Shown here: positions 10,121 through 42,302 of the stretch, one piece after another | How the letters are laid out: each line of letters opens with the position of its first letter | Numbering within the stretch: the first letter of the stretch is position 1 | DNA from: a bacterium | Lineage (GTDB): Bacteria > Patescibacteriota > Doudnabacteria > UBA920 | Length of the DNA: 64,000 nucleotides | NCBI GenBank assembly: GCA_016699995.1 | Contig: CP064996.1 | Span: 412,330-476,329 of the forward strand | Direction: 5' to 3' | Notes under the pieces: model-generated | What the model saw: only the letters and a program-made list of their open reading frames with translations | Told to the model about the DNA's origin: nothing | Databases searched by the model: none | Translations under genes and position numbers: made by a program

Positions 10121-10240
10121 ATTTGGTGAATTTGCCGTTTATGCCGATTTTGCAGATGAAAGTAGAGTATGGGAGAATTGACAAAACCATCCTTTTATAT
10201 TATAGTTAGCGGTTATTATCAATTTTTTAGGAGGAAAAAG

Positions 10241-12136
10241 ATGAAAGACTTAAAGCTATTTAATACTGTGCAGCCTGTTCAGTTTGTTAACGAAGAGGAT
10301 GCTCGTTTTTCCGACTTGCAAGATCGCATTGGCCTATACTCCTACAAGCTTGTGGATCTAGCTGAATCTAATCTTGAGGAAGTGCAGGCTCGTCAGTCAA
10401 TTTTGATGTGGCTGCTAAACAATAGTTCATTATTGGAAAAGTCATTCTTTAGATACGGGATGAGTGGATCCATAGATGGCTACAAGAGTGATGCGACGAT
10501 TCCAAGAAATGCTAGCAGCTTTCTAGCTTACGCACAGTTCATCTTAGAGAAACGAACAGCTTTTTGGCAACGTATCAAACAATTCAATAGTATCGATGAC
10601 TCTTTGTATCGTTTGCCTCAGCGCATTCAAAATTTAAGCAATTACCTTGCGACTGAAGGTGCTGTTAAGTACGAAGAAGAGATGGCTCTGACCAGGCGGA
10701 TGATCGCCGAATTGCGCGAGAGTACGGCGATTCAGGGGGTATTGAAATTCTCAGTGGAAAGCAGAACCCATACCGTAAGGTTTGAAAAAGATGAATCATG
10801 CTATGGTACTTGGTATTACCATCCTTGTGTTGATCCGCTCTTGGATCCTTCCTCGGGGGCGGTGGTCAAGTTCTTGAACAAAATCAAACCAGTCCGCTGG
10901 CTAATCAAGAAGACAAAGGATGCAATCTTCTACGTGAAGAAAGGAGTTGCTCAAATCCGCGAAACCCCCGAATCTATCATCGAGGACGTTCGTATGTTCC
11001 TGGTTAAGAAATGCCAGGAGGATGCCGATTTTGCCGCTTTAGGTAATTGCTCCATCACCGTCGGCTATGTGTTTGACCATACTGGCTTGACTGTATCGCT
11101 GCTGGATTGGAAATACAACAAAATTAGTTCCCGCGGCAGAGAGCTGTATGAGCCTGATCACGGCCTTGCGGTGCGAGAGCGTTCGGCGGACAAAGTTTCC
11201 AAAAAAATGAGCCAACTCCTACGGCTCCGGTATAAAAAGCAGCTCGATGTTTTGGCGGATAAGGTGTTTGTAGAAAACTGCGGACCGATCGAAATTCCTT
11301 GCAAGAATGCCCAACAGGCATTTGCCGATTTGAGTTTCCAGGATATATGGGATCAGTACGAGGAAGAAATCTCCGATCTTAGACAATGGCAAAAGGATGT
11401 AATTGCTCTCTTCAAGGATTTGGGTATCTATTCGGACCTGGCTCACATGATTATGGAACTGGAATTGCCGTATTGTTTTCCAAAAATTGTTGAACAAGGC
11501 GCTATACAGTTTGAGCGATTCTATCCCATTCGTGTTAGGACAGAGGCTAAGACCTATTGCGAACCATTCAGCGGTATCGAGATAGACGACAAGGTTGTGA
11601 ATATTACCGGTGCAAATGGGTCAGGTAAGTCAACCGTGATGTTGGCCGTTCTAGACAATTTAATGCTGGCTCATTGCGGCTTACCTGTCTTTGCAGCCGA
11701 TGCGCAGGTCATTTTGCTCGAACATATTATGCTGAGCTTTTTGGATCGCGATTCCGATAAAAGTACATTCACCGCCAAATTTGAGAAGGACGTTTTTACG
11801 ATGCAATCATTGGAGAAACTTTCTAAAGCTCAGCGGGCTAAGACGTTGATTATCAACGATGAGCTGGGTTCGGCTACGGATCCAGTGGAAATGCTCGATC
11901 TGGCAAAAGAGTATTTGATGTACCTTTATGATCTAGGGGCTCATAGCATTACTTCTAGTCAGATCAAAGAGCTAGGGATCTTTGTGGAGTCGGCGGAGTC
12001 AGGGGGCATCGGCAAGAACCTCGTCATCGACAAAACTTATACAATCAAGCCTGGCTTGGAATCTGGCCGACCCAAGGAGGTGGCCAAGCGACTGGGCTTT
12101 GATGAAATCATTAAGCGTAAGGCTGTCGCAGCCTAA
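10241..12136 (+). CDS. MutS-family P-loop ATPase (MutS ATPase domain V plus C-terminal helix) lacking mismatch-binding and Smr domains
   Basis: Walker A ITGANGSGKSTVMLAVLDNLMLAHCGLPVFAADAQVILLEHIMLSF matches GPNMGGKST...AQ.G..VPA of MutS. Walker B LIINDELGSATD. C-terminal YTIKPGLESGRPKEVAKRLGFDEII resembles the MutS Y.l.pG.a..S.gi.vA.l.G.p tail. Start at 10241 follows GGAGGAAAAAG. Confidence 0.65.
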   Translation: MKDLKLFNTVQPVQFVNEEDARFSDLQDRIGLYSYKLVDLAESNLEEVQARQSILMWLLNNSSLLEKSFFRYGMSGSIDGYKSDATIPRNASSFLAYAQFILEKRTAFWQRIKQFNSIDDSLYRLPQRIQNLSNYLATEGAVKYEEEMALTRRMIAELRESTAIQGVLKFSVESRTHTVRFEKDESCYGTWYYHPCVDPLLDPSSGAVVKFLNKIKPVRWLIKKTKDAIFYVKKGVAQIRETPESIIEDVRMFLVKKCQEDADFAALGNCSITVGYVFDHTGLTVSLLDWKYNKISSRGRELYEPDHGLAVRERSADKVSKKMSQLLRLRYKKQLDVLADKVFVENCGPIEIPCKNAQQAFADLSFQDIWDQYEEEISDLRQWQKDVIALFKDLGIYSDLAHMIMELELPYCFPKIVEQGAIQFERFYPIRVRTEAKTYCEPFSGIEIDDKVVNITGANGSGKSTVMLAVLDNLMLAHCGLPVFAADAQVILLEHIMLSFLDRDSDKSTFTAKFEKDVFTMQSLEKLSKAQRAKTLIINDELGSATDPVEMLDLAKEYLMYLYDLGAHSITSSQIKELGIFVESAESGGIGKNLVIDKTYTIKPGLESGRPKEVAKRLGFDEIIKRKAVAA

Positions 12137-12140
12137 ATAT

Positions 12141-12177
12141 AAAACCTGTTCTGAAGTTCAGAACAGGTTCTTTTTAT
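12141..12177. terminator. bidirectional intrinsic terminator between the convergent MutS-like and HD genes
   Basis: AACCTGTTCTGAA-G-TTCAGAACAGGTT 13 bp stem with a flanking T-run. Confidence 0.8.
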
Positions 12178-12186
12178 TTACTTTGC

Positions 12187-12801
12187 TTATTTTGATTCAG
12201 CAGCGGGGGACGCGGCGCAGCAGCGCTTGGCTCCGAGCCATGAATCGTGCCCTTCTGCTGGGTGATTGTACCAGATCCGAGCGCTGGCCACGTCTGCCAT
12301 GTGGCATAGAGCGGCCAGTTCGTTCATAACTCTGTTGCGGCTGGAATAATCCTTGCCTTCGCCTTCTACGTACTTCATTGCATTCAGTTGCATATCGTTG
12401 AGCTCAATTCCGTATTTCTTGAGCAGCGCCATGCGGAATTTATGCTGAGCGCGCTTTTGGGTAAGATGAGGTTTTACATGGAGCACGCCGTCTTCGTCGA
12501 TGTCGTACTTAAAAGGTTTTTCGACATCATGTAGAAATGTAATCAACAGCACGTCTGATAAAGTAAAAGACAGTTTTCTGTAAGCAGATAAAGTGTTGTA
12601 CAGCACCATGCCGATATTCATGATTTCGGCGATGTGATCATGGTAACCGCCGGGCCAAGCTTGGTGGTTGTTAGTCGAGCCCTGGGTTTTTTTGAATAGA
12701 TCAAAATTTTCTTTGTATAAGCGTATGCATCCCAGCTGATTGGGGCCGTGTATCCAACGCAACAGATCGTGCACAGGGTAAGATCTTTGCAAAGCAGTCA
12801 T
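12187..12801 (-). CDS. HD-domain metal-dependent phosphohydrolase
   Basis: H...HD...D motifs: GGYHDHIAEI, FLHDVEKP, LCHMADVAS. The track ORF (to 12933) runs upstream through the tRNA-Tyr exon. The real start MTALQRSYPV at 12801 follows a GGAGGAAT SD. Confidence 0.7.
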   Translation of the reverse strand: MTALQRSYPVHDLLRWIHGPNQLGCIRLYKENFDLFKKTQGSTNNHQAWPGGYHDHIAEIMNIGMVLYNTLSAYRKLSFTLSDVLLITFLHDVEKPFKYDIDEDGVLHVKPHLTQKRAQHKFRMALLKKYGIELNDMQLNAMKYVEGEGKDYSSRNRVMNELAALCHMADVASARIWYNHPAEGHDSWLGAKRCCAASPAAESK

Positions 12802-12852
12802 AATTCCTCCAGAAAAAAGTGAACTAAGTTTAGCAAAATTTTGCGGGCATTT

Positions 12853-12879
12853 CAAAAAACACCCTTGCGGGTGTTTTGA
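12853..12879 (-). terminator. intrinsic terminator downstream of the minus-strand tRNA-Tyr
   Basis: Minus-sense AACACCCGCAAGGGTGTT hairpin followed by TTTTTTG. Confidence 0.6.
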
Positions 12880-12882
12880 TGG

Positions 12883-13158
12883 TGGGCAGGACAGGATTCG
12901 AACCTGTGAAGGCACAAGGCCGGCTGATTTCACTTTATCCTAAAGTTACCTAAAGGCGTGGACTATATCTTCACCATTGCAGGTGTCCCGGTATCTAGTC
13001 TCTACGGCGCTCTCATGATTGTGAGTTCCCACGGTATTGCCCTTGTCTTACGACAGTCGGGTTTCACCGTTATCCCGGAAAGTTTATCGTACAGTTCTTG
13101 TTCCCGTACGAGCTGCATTTTTACAGTCAGCTGCGTTTGACCGCTTCGCTACCTACCC
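12883..13158 (-). tRNA. tRNA-Tyr (anticodon GTA) interrupted by a ~192 nt group I intron in the anticodon loop; mature tRNA about 84 nt
   Basis: Minus-sense exon 1 is GGGTAGG-TA-GCGA-AGCGGTCAA-ACGC-A-GCTGA-CTGT (13158..13123). Exon 2 is AAA-TCAGC-CGGCCTTGTGCCTTC-ACAGG-TTCGAAT-CCTGT-CCTGCCC-A-CCA (12930..12880). Joined, they give a class II tRNA near-identical in architecture to E. coli tRNA-Tyr (long variable arm, anticodon loop CU-GUA-AA, CCA encoded). Confidence 0.7.
12931..13122 (-). ncRNA. group I self-splicing intron within tRNA-Tyr
   Basis: 5' exon ends in U, and CUGU pairs with intron GCAG to form P1 with a U.G at the splice site. Intron ends in G (…GGATAAAGTG). Contains J6/7-P7 GUAGAGACUAGA and P7 3' strand GAAGAUAUAGUCC, closely resembling the Azoarcus and Tetrahymena group I cores. 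Confidence 0.65.
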
Positions 13159-13558: not shown

Positions 13559-13714
13559 ATGTCACAAGATCACAGAATTCAGTTGGAATGCACTGAATGC
13601 CGCAACATCAACTATAATACTACTAAGAATAAAAAGAATACCCAGGCTCGCTTGGAGATTAAGAAGTATTGTAAGTTTTGCCGCAAGCAGACCGTTCACA
13701 AGGAAACCAAGTAA
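13559..13714 (+). CDS. rpmG: 50S ribosomal protein L33 (51 aa; below the ORF-track length cutoff)
   Basis: [51 protein letters not shown]: CxxC...CxxC zinc ribbon and the conserved KNK..RLE.KKYC..C.KHT.HKE L33 signature. Confidence 0.85.
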
Positions 13715-13777: not shown

Positions 13778-13848
13778 GGGGGCTTCGTATAATGGTAGTA
13801 CAATGGTCTCCAAAACCATTTGCGTAGGTTCGATTCCTACAGCCCCTG
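13778..13848 (+). tRNA. tRNA-Trp (anticodon CCA)
   Basis: Acceptor GGGGGCT/AGCCCCT (G1.U72), anticodon arm ATGGT-CTCCAAA-ACCAT, T arm GTAGG-TTCGATT-CCTAC, discriminator G, CCA encoded. Confidence 0.8.
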
Positions 13849-13889
13849 CCACAAAAACACTCAGTTATGCTGAGTGTTTTTGTTTGAGG
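13844..13889 (+). repeat. direct repeat copy 1 (tRNA-Trp 3' end plus terminator), 46 nt
   Basis: CCCTGCCACAAAAACACTCAGTTATGCTGAGTGTTTTTGTTTGAGG recurs at 14484-14529 with 4 mismatches. Confidence 0.8.
13853..13884 (+). terminator. rho-independent terminator after tRNA-Trp
   Basis: AAACACTCAG-TTATG-CTGAGTGTTT followed by TTGTTTG. Confidence 0.75.
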
Positions 13890-13908
13890 GTATGCGAGAA
13901 TCGAACTG

Positions 13909-14433
13909 GTGTATAATAAGTTTATGAGTAAAATACTTATTGTAATTGGGATACTAGGTGCAATCGTTATTGTGCTAAAACTTGTATTGAACAATACTGA
14001 AGCAGAAGCATATCCTTTTGAGAGGAAACCAAATTTTCTGACACCTAGTGAAATGGCTTTTTTTAGAGTTTTATTGAAAATAATAAATGATCAGTATTTT
14101 GTTTTTCCACAAGTACATCTGGCTAGTATTTTGCAGGTAAAAAAGGGAGAATTTGATAGAAAGGAGTGGAAAAGATATTTTAACAAACTAATTCAAAAAT
14201 CTTTCGATTTCGTTATCTTAGATAGGGAAACCTTAAACCCTCTGCTTGTAATCGAATTAGATGATTATACACATTTACAGAGTAAGCGAATTAAGAGGGA
14301 TCTATTTGTAGATAACGCCTTAAAATCAGCCCAAATCAATATCTTACATATTAAGTGTGAAAAGGAGTACAATATCGAAGAACTAAGAACTCTAATTTTC
14401 CAAGCACTATCTCATCCTGGTGAACGACAGTAA
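13909..14433 (+). CDS. DUF2726-family protein (restriction-endonuclease-like fold) with N-terminal TM helix
   Basis: FLTPSEMAFFRVLLKII...VFPQVHLASIL...QKSFDFVILDRETLNPLLVIELDDYTHLQSKRIKRDLFVDNALKSAQINILHI fits the DUF2726 pattern l.p.E..f...L...y.vf.qv.l..il....fDFvl.d......l.aIELDD.sH....RD.f. AT-rich relative to neighbours. Confidence 0.6.
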   Translation: MYNKFMSKILIVIGILGAIVIVLKLVLNNTEAEAYPFERKPNFLTPSEMAFFRVLLKIINDQYFVFPQVHLASILQVKKGEFDRKEWKRYFNKLIQKSFDFVILDRETLNPLLVIELDDYTHLQSKRIKRDLFVDNALKSAQINILHIKCEKEYNIEELRTLIFQALSHPGERQ

Positions 14434-14483
14434 GATAGACAGTGACGCAAAGTGGATATAGAGTTCTAATATCCTCCATAACA

Positions 14484-14529
14484 CCCTGCCACAAAAACAC
14501 TCAGTCATGCTAGGTGTTTTTGTTTGGGT
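14484..14529 (+). repeat. direct repeat copy 2, with slightly degraded terminator hairpin
   Basis: ACACCCTGCCACAAAAACACTCAGTCATGCTAGGTGTTTTTGTTTGGG. One hairpin position is now an A.C mismatch. Confidence 0.8.
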
Positions 14530-14532
14530 AAT

Positions 14533-14575
14533 AAAAGAGAGCGTGGATTCTTTTTAAGAATCCACGCTCTGCATA
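14533..14575. terminator. bidirectional intrinsic terminator
   Basis: AGAGCGTGGATTC-TTTTTAA-GAATCCACGCTCT 13 bp perfect stem. Confidence 0.75.
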
Positions 14576-14578
14576 ACT

Positions 14579-14929
14579 TTAGTACCTGCGGCCGTACGAG
14601 CCATTCCCGGTCGGCTGCCACTGAACACATGCTTCCGGAGGCGGGTTTGGGGTTCGGTACTGACCTTTGAAAACCCTTACCATACCAGTCTGGCTATGCA
14701 TCAGCTTCTTAAGCAAAGTTTCGGGCAGACTGCTCGTTTCTACCTGGAATGGCTTGCCATCGGTGTAAGTTGCTTCGCCTCGGTTGCCAATGCGAAAAGG
14801 TGCTGCGTACCGATCAAGGTTGTTCTTGTCTAAGTGCAGCGAAAAACCATCGGGCTTGTCGCCAAAAAACTCATCCGCTTCCAGATATACCTGGCAGTAT
14901 ACCTTGGATGGTACTGTATTTTTTTTCAT
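14579..14929 (-). CDS. hypothetical protein (116 aa)
   Basis: Strong GGAGG SD 5 nt upstream of the ATG, and a terminator downstream. No recognisable motif. Confidence 0.5.
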   Translation of the reverse strand: MKKNTVPSKVYCQVYLEADEFFGDKPDGFSLHLDKNNLDRYAAPFRIGNRGEATYTDGKPFQVETSSLPETLLKKLMHSQTGMVRVFKGQYRTPNPPPEACVQWQPTGNGSYGRRY

Positions 14930-15177
14930 ATTCCCCTCCTTAAGGTGCGCTTGGTTGCTTTTTTAAGATTTATTTTTATTGCTCAAGTAGTCAACGAATC
15001 AGCTTCGTTGTTGACTCTAGAGCCTAGCAGAAAAAAAGGGTTTTGTCAAGGCGGCAACGTCCTCAGATTATAATATTTGGATGCTTTAATCATTAAAATT
15101 AGACATTCTGAAAATAAAAAAGAGATGAATTTTTCATCTCTCGATATTTCTTTACTCGTCTACTGTCGAATAATATC

Positions 15178-15444
15178 TTAATCATCTTTCTCAATAAACG
15201 TTTTATAGATGGCTACACCCCAGGCTATAAGGCACAGCCCAGGGTTCGTCTCCCAGTAGAACGTGGTGGCGATGATAGCATTTAAGAAGTAGGGGATAAA
15301 TACCCAAGCTGCGAACCCTAGCAGGGAAATGCCAGGGTCAGACGGGACTGTGTCCAGTGTAAATAGAGTCGTTAGTCTTGGAAAAAAAAATGCTGCAACT
15401 ATAATGATAAGTCCAGTGTCTGGATGTGCTTGCCAGAATTCCAT
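15178..15444 (-). CDS. small integral membrane protein (possibly YqaE/Pmp3-like)
   Basis: 88 aa with two hydrophobic helices. Weak resemblance only. Confidence 0.4.
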   Translation of the reverse strand: MEFWQAHPDTGLIIIVAAFFFPRLTTLFTLDTVPSDPGISLLGFAAWVFIPYFLNAIIATTFYWETNPGLCLIAWGVAIYKTFIEKDD

Positions 15445-15542
15445 GAATTATATTGTGCCTCCGTACTAAGATTTTATAAGCCTATTTTACCATATTTGTC
15501 TAATTTTGTCAATATCACTCGATTTACTGATATAATCAATCT

Positions 15543-15962
15543 ATGGAAATAAACTATATTGCGGTACTAGTTGCCGCTGTTGCGCAATTCATTTTTGGCG
15601 CAATTTGGTACATGCCGCTGTTTGGCGGCATGTGGGGCAAGATCCATGGCTTTGATGCTCACAGTAAAGAAGCTCAGGATGAGATGCGCAAAGGCATGAT
15701 GCCTTTGTTGGTTATTCAGTTTATTGGTACATTAGTCACTTCGTATGTTTTTGCACTCCTATACAAAGACATGCCCAGCCAGTGGCACGCCTACGGTTTC
15801 GCCGGCTTTTTGTGGTTAGGATTTATGGTCCCTACTCAAGTTGCGGCAGTATTGTTTGGCGGCACAGAACCAAAATGGGTTACCAAAAAAATCGCCATTA
15901 TGGCTGGAGCAGCTTTGGGTTGTATGATGATTTTGGCTTTCACGATCAGCGCTTTCAACTAA
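15543..15962 (+). CDS. DUF1761-like polytopic membrane protein
   Basis: LVAAVAQFIFGAIWYMPLFGGMWGK N-terminus is typical of DUF1761 (inference from memory). Confidence 0.5.
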   Translation: MEINYIAVLVAAVAQFIFGAIWYMPLFGGMWGKIHGFDAHSKEAQDEMRKGMMPLLVIQFIGTLVTSYVFALLYKDMPSQWHAYGFAGFLWLGFMVPTQVAAVLFGGTEPKWVTKKIAIMAGAALGCMMILAFTISAFN

Positions 15963-16014
15963 AATCCAAAAAACTGCCTTACCTAATGGGGCAGTTTTTT
16001 GTTATGCTATTTTC

Positions 16015-16557
16015 ATGACCGAGCAGGATATTAGAAATTTGATTTTAGATGATAGTGAAATGATGAATGTGTTAAAGGCCGTGAAGGACCTGCGACTACC
16101 GGATTGCTGGATAGGAGCGGGTTTCGTAAGGAATAAAGTTTGGAACTACTTACATCAATATCCTAACGACCTTAATTCGTCCGACATTGATGTTGTTTAT
16201 TATAATGATCGTAACACCGATTCAGAGCAGGAAAAAGCTATCGAAAATGCTTTAGCTCAGAAAATCTCCAGCGATTGGTCTGTTACGAACCAGGCTCGAA
16301 TGCACACGGAAAATGGAGATGAGCAATATACGTCTACTGAGGATGCGATTAGCTATTGGCCAGAGACTGCTACTGCAGTCGCGGTACGGCTCGGCCAAAG
16401 CCATGAATTGGAGATTATTGCCCCGTATGGTTTAGACGATCTGCTTTCTATGATTATAAGAATGTCACCAAAATTTAAAGATCCTAACAAGTTCAAGCAG
16501 AGGCTATCAAGTAAGCGCTGGCAGGAGAGATGGCCACAAGTTACAATTATTAATTAG
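16015..16557 (+). CDS. small nucleotidyltransferase-family protein (about 180 aa stand-alone NTase)
   Basis: LPDCWIGAGFVRNKVWNYLH...SDIDVVYYND carries a G[GS]-x9-13-DhD nucleotidyltransferase signature. Confidence 0.5.
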   Translation: MTEQDIRNLILDDSEMMNVLKAVKDLRLPDCWIGAGFVRNKVWNYLHQYPNDLNSSDIDVVYYNDRNTDSEQEKAIENALAQKISSDWSVTNQARMHTENGDEQYTSTEDAISYWPETATAVAVRLGQSHELEIIAPYGLDDLLSMIIRMSPKFKDPNKFKQRLSSKRWQERWPQVTIIN

Positions 16558-16562
16558 ATTTT

Positions 16563-17153
16563 ATGAGTATAGAACAAAATCGATTCGGTGAACAATTTTC
16601 GGAACAAGAAAGTCGTCAGCAAAGATGGAATGAACTTACTGTGGAGATTGACCAAATAAAAGATCGTTTAGGTAAAGGGATAGACGAAGGTATTAAAGAA
16701 GCTGTCATTGGTCTTCGAGCTTTGGATGTGAACGTAACCCAATCATGTGAAGGTCATAATGATCACGGGACAGGCGGGCCTTACATCGACGTAGAGTCTG
16801 ATTTGAATACAGTCCATGAGAAAGTATTGGAGCCTATGTATGGCAACCTGGACGATAAGGAAACACAGCAGAAATTTGACGATTTGGTAGAAGAAATTAA
16901 TTATAATAATTTGCGCGAAAGAAAAAAGCTGATCGAATTACTAGATGAATTCTATACCGGGCGAGAGACTCCTTATGAAATACGGCTATCCGTGAGCCCA
17001 ATGGCAAGATCTTGGAGCCGGCTAGAAAATCAGGGCGTGGGGTTACAAACGATTGAAGAAGACGCTGAAAAAAAGAACTTGCGATTAAAAATGTTTAAGG
17101 CCGAAATGGACGATTTTAAAGAATTTTTAAAGAACAAATTTTTCCAAACCTAA
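16563..17153 (+). CDS. hypothetical protein, acidic coiled-coil-rich with an SCEGHNDHGTGG segment
   Basis: 6 nt after the NTase stop and 17 nt before the kinase, implying an operon. Confidence 0.45.
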   Translation: MSIEQNRFGEQFSEQESRQQRWNELTVEIDQIKDRLGKGIDEGIKEAVIGLRALDVNVTQSCEGHNDHGTGGPYIDVESDLNTVHEKVLEPMYGNLDDKETQQKFDDLVEEINYNNLRERKKLIELLDEFYTGRETPYEIRLSVSPMARSWSRLENQGVGLQTIEEDAEKKNLRLKMFKAEMDDFKEFLKNKFFQT

Positions 17154-17169
17154 TTGAACAAGCAAACTG

Positions 17170-17757
17170 ATGCCTAAACCTGTGATCATCTTAGTAAACG
17201 GTTTGCCGGCAACTGGCAAAACCACCATAGCGACGAAAATCGCCGGTCATTTGCAATGGCCGATTTTTCGCAAGGATGACATCAAAGAGCAGCTCGCAGA
17301 TAGATTAAATGAATTTAACCTCGAAAGTTCTCATCGTTTAGGATTAGTGTCGCGGGTTATGCTGCGATATATCACAGAACAGCTTTCCCGATCCAATTCA
17401 AATTTTATAATCGACTCCAATTTTTCCAACGGCGTTCAGACAGACGAGTTTATTAACATGATGAAAAACGCTCGCCACCGTATCATCGAGGTGTTCCTTC
17501 ACACGGACGGCGAAGTGCTCTATGAAAGATTTAGGGACCGAATTAAGGATCGGCATCCGATCCATTTAGAACACTTTCAGGGCTTTGAAGATTTTAGAGA
17601 AACTATCAGTAAAGGATCGCTGCAGCCATTGTCTTTAGACGGAATCGTTATTAGAGTCGATACAACCGATTTTAGTAAATTGGATGAAAGTAAATTGCTA
17701 GAGGAAATCAAGAATTCATTAAATAATATTTATGAACATAATAGCGATTGGATTTGA
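17170..17757 (+). CDS. P-loop kinase-like ATPase (AAA_33/zeta-toxin/Cpt-like fold)
   Basis: Walker A VIILVNGLPATGKTTIATKIA at the N-terminus. Small-molecule or polynucleotide kinase architecture of about 190 aa. Confidence 0.55.
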   Translation: MPKPVIILVNGLPATGKTTIATKIAGHLQWPIFRKDDIKEQLADRLNEFNLESSHRLGLVSRVMLRYITEQLSRSNSNFIIDSNFSNGVQTDEFINMMKNARHRIIEVFLHTDGEVLYERFRDRIKDRHPIHLEHFQGFEDFRETISKGSLQPLSLDGIVIRVDTTDFSKLDESKLLEEIKNSLNNIYEHNSDWI

Positions 17758-17968
17758 TTACGGTGGAGTTATTGGGCTGCATAAAAGAGATTGAAGGAAA
17801 GCGGCTATAAATTAGGGATGTTGAGTAATAACTCCAAAGAGAAAACAGTTCAGAGATTGGATTCACTCCTATCCTGTATTTAAACGTTCGACAGCTCGAA
17901 GCCAGGCTTAAAGAGTTGGGAATTTTTTAGCCCTATCTATATATCTCGACTACAGGTATGATATAGAT

Positions 17969-18355
17969 ATGTCGGCACTGCAAAAGGAGCAAATTTACGT
18001 AGAATTGCGCAAATATCATTTGGACGAACTTCCAGATTCTTTTGCTAATCCTAAGCTAAATGAACTACTAGCCGAGTACCGGCTGCTGGAAGACCAGTCG
18101 ATCAGCATGCTGCTTGGGTTGGTAAATGGAAAGTCAGAAATTGCAGACTTTTCCAATGACTACGAAAATTTCGCTGCTAAAATTGAAATGTTAAATGATG
18201 TAGAAGATAAAAATGATAAGCAGCATTTTCATTCCAAGCTGGAGAGCTTAAAATATATTATTTCTATGGCCCAAGCCGCATCCTTTACCATTAGGCCAGT
18301 AAGAAAAATTAAACAGTCCAGCAGAGCAGTCGTGACAAAGATCAATAAAAAATGA
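17969..18355 (+). CDS. hypothetical protein (128 aa)
   Basis: Track ORF followed by a terminator. No motif. Confidence 0.4.
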   Translation: MSALQKEQIYVELRKYHLDELPDSFANPKLNELLAEYRLLEDQSISMLLGLVNGKSEIADFSNDYENFAAKIEMLNDVEDKNDKQHFHSKLESLKYIISMAQAASFTIRPVRKIKQSSRAVVTKINKK

Positions 18356-18386
18356 AACCGCGTTGTAACTCAAAGCGGTTTTTTGT
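18355..18386 (+). terminator. rho-independent terminator
   Basis: AAACCGCG...GCGGTTTTTTG. Confidence 0.5.
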
Positions 18387-18398
18387 TATCCTGATTTT

Positions 18399-18941
18399 AT
18401 GAATTTAAATGAATTGTTTGAAAAGGCCATCGTGCACAGAGAGCAACATCAGTGTAGCGCTTATCCCTATGAAAGCTATGATAGACTTTTTGAGATTGTT
18501 ACCGTCGAAAATCCAGACCGTATACTGGAGATAGGCTCTGGCTGCGGTTTTAGCGCTTGCGTTATGATGCTGGCCAGCCCAAGATTGCAGCTGGATAGTA
18601 TAGAGAAAGACCCAGAGCACGTTAAAGCTGCGCGTCAATTTTTGCAGGAAAATTTAACTCCGCAGGCAGCAGGGCGTGTAAGGATTATTGAGGGTATCGC
18701 GGAAGAAGTTTTAGAAAGATTGACTGAAGGGTATGATTTAATTTTCTTTGATGGTTATCAGATCCATTATGAATTTTTACCTCATTACAAAAGGCTGCTT
18801 AAAGCCGGCGGGCTGTTGGTTTTAGGAAACACGCATTTGAGCAGTAAAACCAGTGATAATTTCTTTGCGGAATTAAGTAACGGCAAGGATGGGAAGATCA
18901 TGGACCGATTCGCAGAAACGATACTGGCCCGCCGCATATAA
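18399..18941 (+). CDS. class I SAM-dependent O-methyltransferase (family 3, YrrM/TrmR-like)
   Basis: Motif I ILEIGSGCGFSACVMM and motif II DLIFFDG. Confidence 0.65.
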   Translation: MNLNELFEKAIVHREQHQCSAYPYESYDRLFEIVTVENPDRILEIGSGCGFSACVMMLASPRLQLDSIEKDPEHVKAARQFLQENLTPQAAGRVRIIEGIAEEVLERLTEGYDLIFFDGYQIHYEFLPHYKRLLKAGGLLVLGNTHLSSKTSDNFFAELSNGKDGKIMDRFAETILARRI

Positions 18942-18987: not shown

Positions 18988-19689
18988 ATGAACTTAACAG
19001 ACAAGTTAAATCATTTAGCAATTATTCCCGATGGGAACCGAAGATGGGCGAAGGCTCGTCTTTTGTTACCCTGGAAAGGCCACATAGAAGGCGTGAAGCG
19101 CTTTTGGGAGTTAGCAGAAGCAGCAGCACAGATGGGTATTAAGTACCTGACTTTCTGGGCCGGTTCCTATGGCAACTTAGACAAGCGCAGTAAAGAAGAA
19201 GTAGATGTCTTATTTCAGCTTATGGCCGATGAGCTAGCCAAGCCAGAGTTGCTCGAAAAATTAGAAAAGAATAAAACCAGCTTAAAGGTCATAGGGGAGT
19301 GGGAATTATTTGCCCGGGATTCTAAGCTAAAAGACACCTTGCAGGGTATTGAAAACAAGACCACCGAAGGTGCGGAGTATCAATTAACCATTTTATTTGG
19401 TTACGATGGCCAGCGCGAAATGCTGGCTGCTGTTAAATCTCTCCAGCAATCGGGGCAAGAGGTTAACGCCGATAACTTACAGCAAAGCCTTTGGACCAAA
19501 GAATTGCCGGCCGTGGACCTAGTTATCCGCACCGGCGGTGAACCGCACTGGTCCGCGGGTTTCTTAATGTGGCAGACAGCTAACAGCCAATACTATTTTA
19601 CAGAAGATTTGTGGCCGGACTTTAAAGTGCCGCAATTAAAAACAGCGCTCGAAGATTTCGAGCGCCGCGAGCGGCGTTTGGGTAAATAA
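18988..19689 (+). CDS. uppS: undecaprenyl diphosphate synthase (cis-isoprenyl transferase)
   Basis: HLAIIPDGNRRWA, LTFWAGSYGNLDKRSKEEV and the C-terminal RRERRLG motif. Confidence 0.9.
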   Translation: MNLTDKLNHLAIIPDGNRRWAKARLLLPWKGHIEGVKRFWELAEAAAQMGIKYLTFWAGSYGNLDKRSKEEVDVLFQLMADELAKPELLEKLEKNKTSLKVIGEWELFARDSKLKDTLQGIENKTTEGAEYQLTILFGYDGQREMLAAVKSLQQSGQEVNADNLQQSLWTKELPAVDLVIRTGGEPHWSAGFLMWQTANSQYYFTEDLWPDFKVPQLKTALEDFERRERRLGK

Positions 19690-19721: not shown

Positions 19722-20077
19722 GCTTCAAGCAGACTCGTAAGCCGAATTTTGTTTTTAAGCGATAATCAATCTTGGCAGCTTGTTACCAAACTGCTCGTGC
19801 GCCCTACCAAATTTGGGCTTGCACTCAAGTAAGAATTTAGCCGTTTCATCCTCTGCATCTCTGCAGTGATTAATCCTCAAGCAAGCTTGTAGGATTCCTT
19901 TGCATTTCTGCGCCGGCGTCACTGTTCGCATCTCGTAAGTTACCTTAGACGGGTGTTACCCGCTACTAGTTGTTAAAAGCTCATATGATACCTTCAACGC
20001 GAGTGTTCGGACTTTCCTCTCTGGCCCTCAGCCTTGCGGCATAGTTCCAGAGTAATCGCTCGATCTGCTTAAAGCTC
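19722..20077 (-). ncRNA. rnpB: RNase P RNA, bacterial type A
   Basis: Minus-sense reading gives the P4 5' strand GAGGAAAGTCCGAACAC and the P4 3' strand ACAAAATTCGGCTTA. Also AGCGGGTAACACCCG and CAGTGACGCCGGCGCAGAAATGCAAAGG, matching E. coli CAGUGCAACAGAGAGCAAACCGCC. P1 pairs 5' GCUUUAAGCAGAU with 3' GUCUGCUUGAAGC. No ORF in the track across these 535 nt. Confidence 0.8.
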
Positions 20078-40358: not shown

Positions 40359-42302
40359 ATGGAACAAAAAGAACAAATCAATTTTTTTGGCAAAACGAAC
40401 TTCCGCAATCGGCAAGTTCCTTTTGGCATTAAAACCGACGATCGCCGTCGTCACATGTATGTGATCGGTAAAACAGGAATGGGGAAGACCACGTTGATGG
40501 AAAACATGGTTATTCAGGATATCCGCAACGGCAACGGCGTCTGCTTCATCGACCCCCATGGCGATCCGATAATGAAAATTTTGGATTTTGTTCCGCCTCA
40601 TCGGATTAACGACGTGGTGTACTTTAATCCGGCCGATTTAGACTACCCGATCGCGTTCAATATATTAGAATCTGTGGAAAGCCGGTATAAACATTTAGTC
40701 GCTTCCGGCTTGATGGGTGTGTTCACCAAAATTTGGGCCAGCATGTGGTCTAGCCGTATGGAATACATTCTAAACAACACCATTTTGGCTTTGCTCGACA
40801 GTCCTGGCAACACTATGCTTGGTATTGTGCGAATGTATGTAGATAAAAAGTACCGTAAAAAAATTGTCGATAATATCAAGGATCCAATGGTTAAGGCTTT
40901 TTGGATTGAAGAGTTCGCCAATTATGCAGAAAAGTACCGAACAGAAGCCGTGGCTCCGATCCAGAACAAAGTCGGACAGTTTTTATCCTCGGCCGTCATT
41001 CGCAACATCGTGGGGCAGCCAAAATCTACAATAGATTTGCGCGATATAATGGATAACCAAAAAATTCTATTGCTGGACCTTTCTAAAGGTAAAGTGGGTG
41101 AAGATAACTCCGCGTTACTCGGAGCCATGATTATTACTAAACTCCAGTTGGCAGCTTTATCTCGCGTGGACATACCGGAAAGCGAACGTAAGGATTTTTA
41201 TTTATACGTGGACGAATTTCAAAACTTCGTCACGGACAGTTTTGCGACTATTCTAAGCGAAGCGCGTAAATATCGTTTAAACCTTACCATGGGCCACCAG
41301 TATATCGGCCAGCTGACTCCGGAAAACAATACCAAAGTTCGCGATGCCGTATTCGGTAACGTTGGCTCTATGATTGTATTCCGAGTAGGAGCGGCGGATG
41401 CCGAGTATTTAGAAACGGAGTTCGAACCGGCATTTACCCCTACAGACATCGTCAATTTGCCTAAATTCCATATCGTCTTAAAACTAATGATCAACGGCGT
41501 GGCCAGCGATCCTTTCACGGCTACAACCATTCCTGTCGATGAGAACTGGAGAATAGGGGACGGTGAAAAAGTAATTAAAGTTTCTCGAGAACGCTATGCT
41601 AATCCGCGTGAAGAAGTAGAAGAAAAGATTCAGCGCTGGATGGGCACAGAATTTCATGAGGCTTCTGCCGATTCGCACAGTGCTGAAAATGGCGAACAGT
41701 CTATCCGCAGACAGCGAGATCTTCCCGCACAAAAAGCTGGGACGGGCGGTTATGCTGCGTCCAGAGAACGCACCCCAGTGACTCGTCCGGAGAGCAATGA
41801 GAATATGCGCCAAACTGATCAAAATGATCAGCCTGGGGTAGTCGCGGAAGTAAGTGAAGTGGCTGTGCGTAAAGCCAGCATCCAAATCGCCGATGATTTC
41901 TTAAACCGCGTAAAGACTCCGGCCAAAGCTCCAGCCTTTGGTCCATCCGCCGCTGCGCCGGGAAAGCTGGGTCCAAATAGTAATTCAAATAGAACTGGAG
42001 GCCGTTCCTTTAGCAAGCCTAACAGTAGAACAGCTGCGGCACAGCCTGGCAACGCGTATTCGCGCCCAAAACCGGCTCCAAAAGGCCCAAAGAAGCCCGA
42101 CTTTTGGAAAACTGCCCAAACTCTAAATCAACAAAACCAGGAAGGATTGGCTAATAACATCGCTGATGCTTTAGAAGGCGCGTTTACAACAGCACCACCA
42201 AAACCTCAGCCAGCTGCACAACAAGCTCCAAAACCTCCAGTAGACGGTCAAAGTGCAAATCAGACCGGCATAGCAGAGGAAGGACAGACTTACAATTTAT
42301 AA
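40359..42302 (+). CDS. TraD/TraG/VirD4-like (AAA_10-type) P-loop ATPase with long low-complexity C-terminal tail
   Basis: Walker A YVIGKTGMGKTTLMENM and Walker B LYVDEFQNF. The last roughly 200 aa are rich in P/A/Q/G/N. Confidence 0.6.
   Translation: MEQKEQINFFGKTNFRNRQVPFGIKTDDRRRHMYVIGKTGMGKTTLMENMVIQDIRNGNGVCFIDPHGDPIMKILDFVPPHRINDVVYFNPADLDYPIAFNILESVESRYKHLVASGLMGVFTKIWASMWSSRMEYILNNTILALLDSPGNTMLGIVRMYVDKKYRKKIVDNIKDPMVKAFWIEEFANYAEKYRTEAVAPIQNKVGQFLSSAVIRNIVGQPKSTIDLRDIMDNQKILLLDLSKGKVGEDNSALLGAMIITKLQLAALSRVDIPESERKDFYLYVDEFQNFVTDSFATILSEARKYRLNLTMGHQYIGQLTPENNTKVRDAVFGNVGSMIVFRVGAADAEYLETEFEPAFTPTDIVNLPKFHIVLKLMINGVASDPFTATTIPVDENWRIGDGEKVIKVSRERYANPREEVEEKIQRWMGTEFHEASADSHSAENGEQSIRRQRDLPAQKAGTGGYAASRERTPVTRPESNENMRQTDQNDQPGVVAEVSEVAVRKASIQIADDFLNRVKTPAKAPAFGPSAAAPGKLGPNSNSNRTGGRSFSKPNSRTAAAQPGNAYSRPKPAPKGPKKPDFWKTAQTLNQQNQEGLANNIADALEGAFTTAPPKPQPAAQQAPKPPVDGQSANQTGIAEEGQTYNL

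Follow-up and report, generated by a model that had tools for sequence, protein, structure and literature searches.

Several systems by which bacteria accrete genes site-specifically have been described. The array of a complete integron is headed by intI, attI and the promoter Pc, and its cassettes are generally promoterless and co-oriented. The attC sites of integrons, 57-141 nt long, are imperfect palindromes that fold in single-stranded form, with the inverse core RYYYAAC and the core GTTRRRY. Cis-mobilizable elements (CIMEs), known from the ICESt1/ICESt3 family in Streptococcus thermophilus, accrete in tandem at one att site. Bacteria of the candidate phyla radiation (CPR) have tiny genomes and few recognised mobile elements, and their gain of accessory genes is therefore poorly understood. 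The present analysis concerns the interval between tRNA-Trp and uppS in a 64-kb stretch of a Doudnabacteria genome (contig CP064996.1 of assembly GCA_016699995.1, positions 412,330 to 476,329; hereafter the window, from whose first letter all positions are counted), and above all the DUF2726 gene that lies next to the tRNA. This gene probably arrived as a cassette, through a site-specific insertion at the tRNA-Trp 3' end catalysed in trans, and units of the same type stand in tandem at tRNA-Trp in other CPR genomes.

A pangenome paper on TM7 reports prophages and transposases and no such cassette arrangement (PMC7739484). Our full-text searches of the literature yielded no account of cassette arrays anchored at tRNA-Trp, or of the 30-nt motif presented below, in CPR bacteria. 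The loci compared with the window are denoted by L numbers. They include 18 CPR loci taken around uppS, onto which the proteins and tRNAs of the window were mapped, and 27 loci obtained by an exact-pattern scan of metagenome contigs. Gene calls in the window are based on a list of open reading frames (ORFs) and on Pfam scans.

A DUF2726 cassette at the tRNA-Trp 3' end

The features that make up the cassette and its anchor are the following.

13778-13851, plus strand: tRNA-Trp (CCA), with its CCA end encoded (ARAGORN; Rfam tRNA, 65.6 bits)
13828-13906, plus strand: long imperfect palindrome of 79 nt (inverted repeat I2, 37-nt arms, 78% complementary)
13844-13886, plus strand: direct repeat copy 1, attL-like, made of the last 8 nt of tRNA-Trp and the trailer hairpin
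13898-13917, plus strand: cassette 5' module GAATCGAACTGGTGTATAAT, made of the right-arm end and a -10-like TATAAT 6 nt before the ATG (leaderless-type start)
13924-14433, plus strand: DUF2726 gene (PF10881, E 2e-30; start at 13909 or 13924 in the ORF list)
14462-14491, plus strand: 30-nt cassette-end motif AGTTCTAATATCCTCCATAACACCCTGCCA (AGTTCTAAYATCCTCCA...CCCTGCCA), 28 nt after the DUF2726 gene and followed by the second hairpin
14484-14526, plus strand: direct repeat copy 2, attR-like, made of CCCTGCCA and a copy of the trailer hairpin, with no right arm after it

The DUF2726 gene is the cargo of a discrete inserted cassette of about 0.6 kb, and tRNA-Trp anchors, in the manner of an attB site, the variable interval that begins here. 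The gene is the sole coding gene of the insert, and no integrase lies inside. As a first-pass annotation made from the letters of the window had noticed, repeats flank it: a repeat search (family D1) delimits them as a direct repeat of 43 nt, 93% identical between its two copies, which comprises the last 8 nt of tRNA-Trp (CCCTGCCA) and the terminator hairpin of the tRNA trailer. The proximal copy forms part of the long palindrome, in which the T-arm and the acceptor 3' strand of the tRNA are followed by the trailer terminator hairpin and then by an inverted right arm, GAGAATCGAAC, that is complementary to the T-arm. Folded as single-stranded DNA, this palindrome reaches -24.6 kcal/mol (z -9.4), and the same layout is found after tRNA-Trp in L008, L018, L009, L006 and L001. 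The sequence directly 3' of the distal copy (GGTAATAAAAGA) resembles the trailer of a cassette-free locus, L002.

The right arm is followed at once by TGGTGTATAAT, then by 6 nt and by the ATG at 13924, which is the likely start codon of the DUF2726 gene. The whole 5' module is unique in the window, where 0 matches are expected by chance, and in L008, L018, L009 and L006 the first gene after tRNA-Trp has an identical or nearly identical module ahead of it. At the other end of the cassette stands the 30-nt motif (hereafter the 30-mer), which ends like tRNA-Trp itself, in CTGCCA. It was detected by nhmmer with an E value of 2.7e-5 in a search of 547 kb, and it occurs in a single copy in the window; further copies of the 30-mer, of the right arm or of the trailer motif were found neither elsewhere between tRNA-Trp and uppS, where degenerate ones were looked for as well, nor in the rest of the 64 kb.

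The cargo is atypical in composition. Against a baseline of the 51 other genes of the window, the guanine-plus-cytosine (GC) content of the DUF2726 gene is 31.4% (vs 43%; z -4.5), and its GC content at third codon positions (GC3) has a z score of -5.0. The protein has a transmembrane helix at its N-terminus, and the sole homologues found for it are 45-69% identical. The closest one (69%) is encoded by the fourth cassette of the tRNA-Trp array of L048, where it is preceded by the same arm-plus-TGGTGTATAAT module.

Arrays of similar units in other CPR genomes

Together with the genome loci, the 27 loci from the metagenome scan contributed 47 copies of the 30-mer, 43 of them distinct. All 47 have a single orientation, that of the tRNA-Trp strand, and conservation falls sharply on either side of the 30 nt. 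In each of the ten metagenome loci that contain tRNA-Trp (10/10), the tRNA lies 0.65-3.1 kb upstream of the 30-mer and on the same strand. The loci around uppS were chosen through UppS, and therefore not selected through the motif; in them, the 30-mer is confined to the interval between tRNA-Trp and uppS, with eight copies in L001 and one each in L006 and L008.

The most extended array is that of L001, the closest relative, in which nine units lie between tRNA-Trp and a gene for a 128-aa protein. The first unit is the end of the tRNA itself. The other eight start with the 30-mer, here AGTTCTAACATCCTCCACCACGCCCTGCCA, each continuing with a near-identical hairpin and five also with the inverted arm. 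Units are spaced by 520-1,471 nt and hold one or two unrelated genes each, three of the cassettes carrying genes on the minus strand. Pfam identifies GNAT and DUF4419 proteins among the cargo; a lipoprotein-like ORF, a short-chain dehydrogenase/reductase (SDR) and a possible toxin-antitoxin-like pair were labelled by reading of the sequence, with no family scan. Shorter arrays are present in L048 (five units), L046 (four), L023 and L032 (three each). Over all arrays, tRNA-Trp is followed by 2-9 units of one or a few genes, unrelated to one another. The cargo of the arrays also includes ArsP, Nramp and an ABC transporter, and is almost never common to two arrays. After minus-strand cargo, the 30-mer nevertheless stays on the tRNA strand (L001 units at 1307, 2742 and 5826; L026), which favours a role of the 30-mer at the DNA level over one in mRNA.

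In the window and in L045, L039 and L001, a second copy of the tRNA trailer hairpin comes after the 30-mer. A related arrangement is seen in L006 (4240-4491), where an exact duplicate of the last 19 nt of tRNA-Trp lies 200 nt downstream of the tRNA. Behind each of the two tRNA-end copies stand a hairpin and an inverted copy of the T-arm (13/13 nt complementary in the first), and the duplicate is apparently an empty or decayed insertion. Further away in the CPR, a Minisyncoccia metagenome-assembled genome (MAG) holds five co-oriented units upstream of uppS (L014, 118-5950), with unrelated genes between copies of a variant motif, GGTTCTAACGTCGTCCAGCCGCCGGAGCA. Compared with the 30-mer, the 5' half of this motif is conserved across CPR classes and the 3' half is different. 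Rfam recognised only tRNA in the L001 array and in the corresponding region of the window.

Gene content between tRNA-Trp and uppS: a probable mosaic

The closest relatives of the window by UppS are Candidatus Saccharibacteria MAGs, with 59-75% identity, and the window is read here as belonging to a Saccharibacteria (CPR) genome. Intervals were compared between the window and the 10 related loci that have both tRNA-Trp and uppS, giving 11 intervals. A conserved backbone surrounds them. It runs through rpsB-tsf-TPR, tRNA-Thr, tRNA-Tyr, tRNA-Thr, rpmG and tRNA-Trp on the left, where rpmG was found by tblastn upstream of tRNA-Trp in the related loci covering that stretch. After a variable part, it resumes on the right with the 128-aa gene and a methyltransferase gene, a second variable part, uppS, a third variable part, three glycosyltransferase genes and murG. 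The ancestral order would have been rpsB-tsf-TPR, tRNA-Thr/Tyr/Thr, rpmG, tRNA-Trp, a plastic interval, (128-aa gene)-methyltransferase, uppS, glycosyltransferases and murG. The distance from tRNA-Trp to uppS varies from 2,088 to 9,531 nt in the 10 related loci and is 5,137 nt in the window. Besides the features of the cassette, the window contains the following in and around this interval.

13559-13714, plus strand: rpmG, ribosomal protein L33 (Pfam Ribosomal_L33, E 3e-21), conserved left-hand backbone
14538-14570, no strand assigned: perfect 15-bp hairpin, the terminator for the minus-strand 116-aa gene (repeat and terminator scans)
14579-14929, minus strand: 116-aa protein of no known family (ORF list)
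15178-15444, minus strand: 88-aa membrane protein ORF, accessory (ORF list)
15543-15962, plus strand: DUF1761 membrane protein (Pfam, E 1e-18)
16015-17757, plus strand: three-gene operon, accessory (Pfam)
16015-16557, plus strand: NTP_transf_6 nucleotidyltransferase, first gene of the operon (Pfam, E 5e-62)
16563-17153, plus strand: 196-aa protein of no known family, second gene of the operon (ORF list)
17170-17757, plus strand: AAA_33/zeta-like P-loop kinase, third gene of the operon (Pfam)
17969-18355, plus strand: 128-aa protein of no known family, backbone (ORF list)
18399-18941, plus strand: O-methyltransferase, backbone (Pfam)
18988-19689, plus strand: uppS, right-hand backbone anchor (Pfam Prenyltransf, E 4e-56)

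The ORF list and the Pfam scans bear out every gene that the first-pass annotation had listed between tRNA-Trp and uppS, as well as the mixed orientations, with the 116-aa and 88-aa genes on the minus strand and the others on the plus strand. The several intrinsic terminators that it mentioned are also there, with 13 terminator-like sites observed vs 6.7 +/- 2.5 expected. The patchy GC and codon texture is real and lies in the DUF2726 gene and the 116-aa ORF, the latter with 50.4% GC (z +2.6); the remaining genes of the interval lie within about 2 standard deviations of the baseline. Where that annotation had seen an accessory islet of about 5 kb beside the tRNA, the idea of a tRNA-adjacent hotspot holds, in that the interval is a genuine site of gene-content variation which differs in each genome compared. 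Of the islet itself, the stretch from about 13887 to 17930 is variable. The right-hand part is not: the methyltransferase family occurs in 11/11 intervals, beside uppS, and the 128-aa family in 9/11. A promoter block of the 128-aa gene, CTATCTATAT...TATGATATAGATATG, is common to the window, L002 and L007, and the backbone therefore resumes at about 17930. On this sequence comparison, we regard 17930-18941 as conserved backbone and not as accessory, and approximately 13887-17930 as the truly variable part. Comparison with the related loci thus moved the right border. Exact conservation of gene order with uniform composition was not what the comparison returned; the region therefore remains accessory, with other borders and another history than those first given.

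The same annotation had supposed that the islet replaced secE-nusG-rplKA after tRNA-Trp. Neither secE nor nusG follows tRNA-Trp in the window or in any of the related loci (0/10), and the order rpmG-tRNA-Trp-variable part-uppS is shared by all of these; a distant CPR contig (L033, UppS 39% identical) has rpmG...tRNA-Trp...uppS too. Domains of SecE, NusG, L11 and L1 were not found in the window ORFs scanned with Pfam, which were all but a few. As secE-nusG-rplKA are not expected here in this lineage, nothing was replaced. The inference of a loss or displacement of secE-nusG is thereby corrected, and the backbone genes are separated from the truly accessory ones.

Instead of one island, the variable part is a mosaic built from separate gains. 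In the minimal, cassette-free locus L002, just 168 nt separate tRNA-Trp from the 128-aa gene. For six proteins of the window (DUF2726, 116-aa, 88-aa, nucleotidyltransferase, 196-aa and kinase), tblastn gave no match in the syntenic interval of the relatives, nor in about 30 further CPR loci. DUF1761 has a different distribution: copies 67% identical to that of the window are found in the tRNA-Trp-uppS interval of L009 and L016, above the UppS identity to the same loci (62-63%), and a 40% identical copy is present in L022. On these identities, the gene looks like an old resident that has been patchily retained. The 116-aa gene, with its high GC content and a strong Shine-Dalgarno sequence (AAGGAGG, 5 nt ahead of its ATG, as first noticed in the earlier reading), has a foreign character, and we take it for an accessory ORFan; a word-indexed search of 5.8 billion proteins returned solely the protein itself. 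The closest matches found for the nucleotidyltransferase are 44-50% identical and lie on plasmids of Bacteroidota, Pseudomonadota and Bacillota, and the relatives of operon proteins in the Protein Data Bank (2LA3, 2RHM) are uncharacterised. PADLOC and NCBIfam gave no assignment for the proteins of the interval, the operon included.

Expression signals differ as well. Shine-Dalgarno-like motifs are rare in the window (8/56 genes), and a -10-like element lies 5-8 nt before the start codon in 11/56 genes, examples from the spacing analysis being 13912-13926, 16000-16017 and 18384-18401. This layout suggests leaderless transcripts. The composition and expression signals of the remaining genes differ, a sign of several events. 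The other five or six genes have no cassette signature and are of mixed origin, and we infer that they arrived via other or older events. A 10-nt identity, AGATTGGATT, is shared by the window (about 17846-17857) and L002 (1078-1089), where it belongs to a degenerate right arm after the tRNA trailer. It could mark the entry point of a 3.3-kb block or an older insertion junction, a match too weak for a claim.

A proposed mechanism

In the mechanism proposed here, the plastic interval at about 13887-17930 would hold the products of several independent gene gains, the one nearest to the tRNA being the 0.6-kb DUF2726 cassette, gained by site-specific recombination at the tRNA-Trp 3' end. The insertion would have regenerated the tRNA end and the trailer hairpin proximally and placed a second copy distally, directly after the 30-mer. 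Cassettes of this type would combine an inverted arm and a -10 element, placed 6 nt ahead of the ATG, with one or more cargo genes and a 30-mer ending in CTGCCA, and new units would enter at the tRNA-proximal position. The recombinase would act in trans, as it must if the arrays were so built, because no recombinase gene is found near them. The tRNA end is directly repeated, and the first gene is atypical in GC content and absent from relatives; on this evidence the gene was inserted at the tRNA 3' end, and we infer that the recombination was site-specific. A fixed anchor, tRNA-end repeats, a conserved arm, uniform stacking and atypical cargo together read as the classical footprint of tRNA 3'-end insertion, here in tandem.

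Several results weigh against this mechanism. The crossover can be placed no more finely than within the 43-nt repeat; the trailer types in L048, L008 and L010 are compatible with two positions, CTGCCA or just before the right arm. A regular expression for tyrosine-recombinase boxes had no match in the window or in about 56 loci. Pfam scans of over 150 ORFs brought up no recombinase family (in a 126-ORF screen, among the 25 commonest families listed), and none was recognised in the window ORFs that were Pfam-scanned. The closest available relative is 66-75% identical in protein sequence (methyltransferase 66%, UppS 75%), so distant that neither an excised circle nor an empty-site polymorphism is observable for this genome. 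The hairpins of full units have no covariation support, with 0 compensatory pairs and pairing no better than in column shuffles. RNAalifold gave no consensus hairpin for the units, and a stem specified by us is complementary in 73% of cells, vs about 33% when slid, with no compensatory change. Lastly, 7/11 Saccharibacteria intervals vary without any 30-mer, and in one Saccharibacteria population with an identical methyltransferase (L057-L066), strains differ by the exchange of a TauD-like gene for a tRNA_edit gene, where the flanks are conserved and the junctions show no repeat. The locus is therefore remodelled by homologous recombination as well, which may account for the block at 14540-17930 of the window, which has no cassette signature. 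Many contigs of this population end just upstream of the methyltransferase gene.

A cognate autonomous element with the same att site, whether an integrative and conjugative element (ICE) or a phage, was not found in two scans of viral contigs. The 30-mer gave 0 hits there, and a looser pattern gave six hits with no tRNA or array context. These six were considered as a phage or plasmid carrier of the att site and set aside as probable chance matches.

A broader reading can be offered tentatively, and we would put it somewhat short of even chances: CPR bacteria (Saccharibacteria, and Minisyncoccia with the variant motif) may own an undescribed integron-like platform for gene capture, located at the tRNA-Trp 3' end and the trailer palindrome, which stacks promoter-bearing cassettes of 0.5-1.5 kb with a 30-nt end motif and is served by a recombinase encoded elsewhere, the window being a minimal case with one cassette. 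If so, the 30-mer would be a searchable marker with which the flexible gene pool of CPR episymbionts could be catalogued, the tRNA-Trp slot would be a candidate neutral insertion site for genetic tools, and the evolution of integron-like systems would gain a new point of comparison.

Comparison with known systems and alternative explanations

Integrons, and clusters of attC sites lacking integron-integrases (CALINs), are the most obvious comparison. Like them, the arrays described here line up single-gene units that are unrelated and mostly co-oriented, and that accumulate at one fixed place in the chromosome. In our case the units are set apart by imperfect palindromes, about 88 nt in length, with ends (GTTCTAAC...GTTAGAAC) resembling the inverse-core and core boxes of attC, and as in CALINs no integrase is encoded in the vicinity. 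One may ask, then, whether these are true integrons, with the units of about 88 nt (30-mer, hairpin and inverted arm) as attC sites, the palindrome of tRNA-Trp and its trailer as the equivalent of attI, and an IntI elsewhere in the genome. We regard this as unlikely, though it fares better than the other alternatives. The lengths are regular (87-89 nt in 10/12 extracted full units), and six full units, namely five that start with the 30-mer and the tRNA-proximal palindrome of the window, fold as long imperfect hairpins with z scores of -2.8 to -9.4. For the 87-89 nt units the range is -2.8 to -6.4, yet with no compensatory changes, so that the fold has no covariation support. The type-A units, with the boxes TTCTAAC...GTTAGAA at their two ends, match the consensus of each attC box at 6/7 positions and have the same polarity to the cargo, and a possible toxin-antitoxin-like pair, labelled from the sequence with no family scan, is among the unrelated, mostly co-oriented genes of the arrays. 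The boxes are missing from the units of the window, however, where TTCGATT/GAATCGAA and TTCTAAT do not match; its arms are GTTCGATTC/GAATCGAAC, and TTCTAAT belongs to the 30-mer.

Further differences concern the whole design. The right arm is absent from many units, among them the distal units of the window and of L008 and units 2, 4 and 5 of L001. The arrays are anchored to a tRNA gene, at its 3' end, and not to an attI beside intI: at the head of every array stand tRNA-Trp, rpmG and other tRNAs, with no intI and no tyrosine-recombinase motif, and no IntI was seen in the loci examined. The conserved part of the unit is a 30-mer copying the CTGCCA end of the tRNA. In contrast to integron cassettes, those described here bring their own leaderless-type promoter, with a -10-like TATAAT 6 nt before the ATG, and can carry minus-strand genes. 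The system is thus integron-like in outline and is not classed as an integron.

Islands and prophages targeted to tRNA genes share other features with the cassettes. In both, the insert lies between direct repeats containing the 3' end of the tRNA (43 nt long in the window and 19 nt in L006), insertion restores the tRNA, the cargo is atypical in GC content, and its presence varies among relatives. Unlike such islands, the inserts here measure 0.5-1.5 kb, encode one to three genes and lack an integrase; only 8 nt of the repeat lie within the tRNA, the remainder running on through the trailer terminator, and a distinct, conserved 22-nt arm on the element side precedes the shared core. CIMEs are likewise att-bounded units without an integrase that stand in tandem at a single attachment site, as in the arrays of L001, L048, L046, L023 and L032 and with one unit in the window, and they share the dependence on a recombinase supplied in trans that is proposed here. 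The units of the present arrays are much smaller and more numerous (up to 9). The Xer-dependent pdif gene modules of Acinetobacter plasmids are small too, with recombination sites of about 28-30 bp at their borders; that these sites are used by a housekeeping recombinase encoded elsewhere may be counted as another likeness. By eye, with no search run, the 30-mer lacks inverted 11-mers of the XerC/XerD type on either side of a 6-bp spacer and does not resemble dif consensus sequences, and the sites here are all in direct orientation at one chromosomal locus. The cassette signature is therefore best described as a new form of the site-specific accretion systems already known, of which the window is an instance with one unit.

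It is slightly less probable than a true integron, and in our view improbable, that no dedicated system exists at all. The 30-mer and its hairpin would then be a module for transcript ends or processing, a terminator unit resembling a tRNA 3' end, and genes would turn over through natural transformation and homologous recombination between conserved flanks. Such a module would fit the position of the motif, usually 0-70 nt past a stop codon and usually followed by an intrinsic terminator, and the repeat-free swap and the 7/11 intervals varying without the motif would fit turnover of this kind. The motif is nevertheless restricted to the interval next to tRNA-Trp, with one copy in the 64 kb, and does not occur at gene ends generally. 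It keeps the tRNA strand even after cargo on the opposite strand, and so cannot be the 3' untranslated region of that gene. Moreover, it ends with the tRNA's own CTGCCA, and belongs, in the window, to the direct repeat that copies the tRNA end.

A single acquired island of about 5 kb (13887-18941) that displaced secE-nusG-rplKA beside tRNA-Trp, as first proposed, has very little probability left. Its appeal lay in genes that are mostly uncharacterised and of mixed orientation, in the patchy GC content, in an adjacent tRNA with a direct repeat of its end, and in the absence of secE and nusG from the scanned ORFs. But uppS and not secE-nusG follows in 10/10 related loci and in the distant CPR contig, the last two genes are conserved backbone, and the repeat encloses 0.6 kb and not 5 kb. 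The two outliers in composition, moreover, deviate in opposite directions (31% vs 50% GC), which implies separate sources.

Least credible of all is a non-autonomous dispersed element that landed by chance, such as a miniature inverted-repeat transposable element (MITE), a repetitive extragenic palindrome (REP) or a palindrome like a bacterial interspersed mosaic element (BIME): the units are indeed palindromic, about 88 nt long, repeated and intergenic, but there are no copies outside the tRNA-Trp-uppS interval, whether in the 64 kb of the window or in the related loci chosen through UppS, which span up to about 20 kb each, the one copy in the window and the 47 elsewhere are strictly uniform in orientation, on the tRNA-Trp strand and downstream of tRNA-Trp where the flanks are visible, and the units alternate with unrelated genes and do not sit inside otherwise conserved spacers.

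Other features near the locus

A protein of about 220 aa is encoded directly upstream of tRNA-Trp in several loci (L016, 762-1415; L039, 1720-2382; L001, 2-406; L021/L033). It has an N-terminal resolvase-type helix-turn-helix (HTH) domain and a weak LAGLIDADG_3 match (LYWxEG motif), and in four independent lineages the 3' end of its gene falls within the 5' end of tRNA-Trp. Neither the window nor L009 has this protein, although the gene content of the L009 interval is much like that of L016. From these traits, it may be a free-standing element similar to homing endonucleases. It was considered as the enzyme responsible for the cassettes and rejected, its presence not tracking the arrays. In L025 and L028, the slot directly upstream of tRNA-Trp is occupied by a 23S-rRNA-IVS protein.

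To the left of rpmG, the tRNA-Tyr(GTA) gene of the window (12880-13158, minus strand) is split by an intron of 192 nt (13122 to 12931) between anticodon positions 35 and 36; ARAGORN in intron mode gives i(37,192). Exon 1 ends in U and the intron in G, and splicing would yield a normal tRNA-Tyr of 87 nt. The Rfam group I intron model matches the intron with 31 bits (E 3.8e-6), below the gathering score, and tRNA-Tyr is uninterrupted in the relatives. A second accessory patch (10169-12933) lies inside the same tRNA cluster, from tRNA-Thr(GGT) to the intron-containing tRNA-Tyr. It encodes a 655-aa protein with a MutS domain V and a P-loop, and a 248-aa ORF on the minus strand, with no homologue in the related loci.

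To the right, a match to bacterial class A RNase P RNA (E 1.7e-16), cut at the edge of the searched range, lies at 19722 to about 20100 on the minus strand, between uppS and the glycosyltransferase genes; it does not appear at the gathering score in a scan of the whole window. Further along, among cell-envelope genes, the window encodes a 647-aa ATPase of the TrwB/HerA type, similar to type IV coupling proteins (40359-42302).

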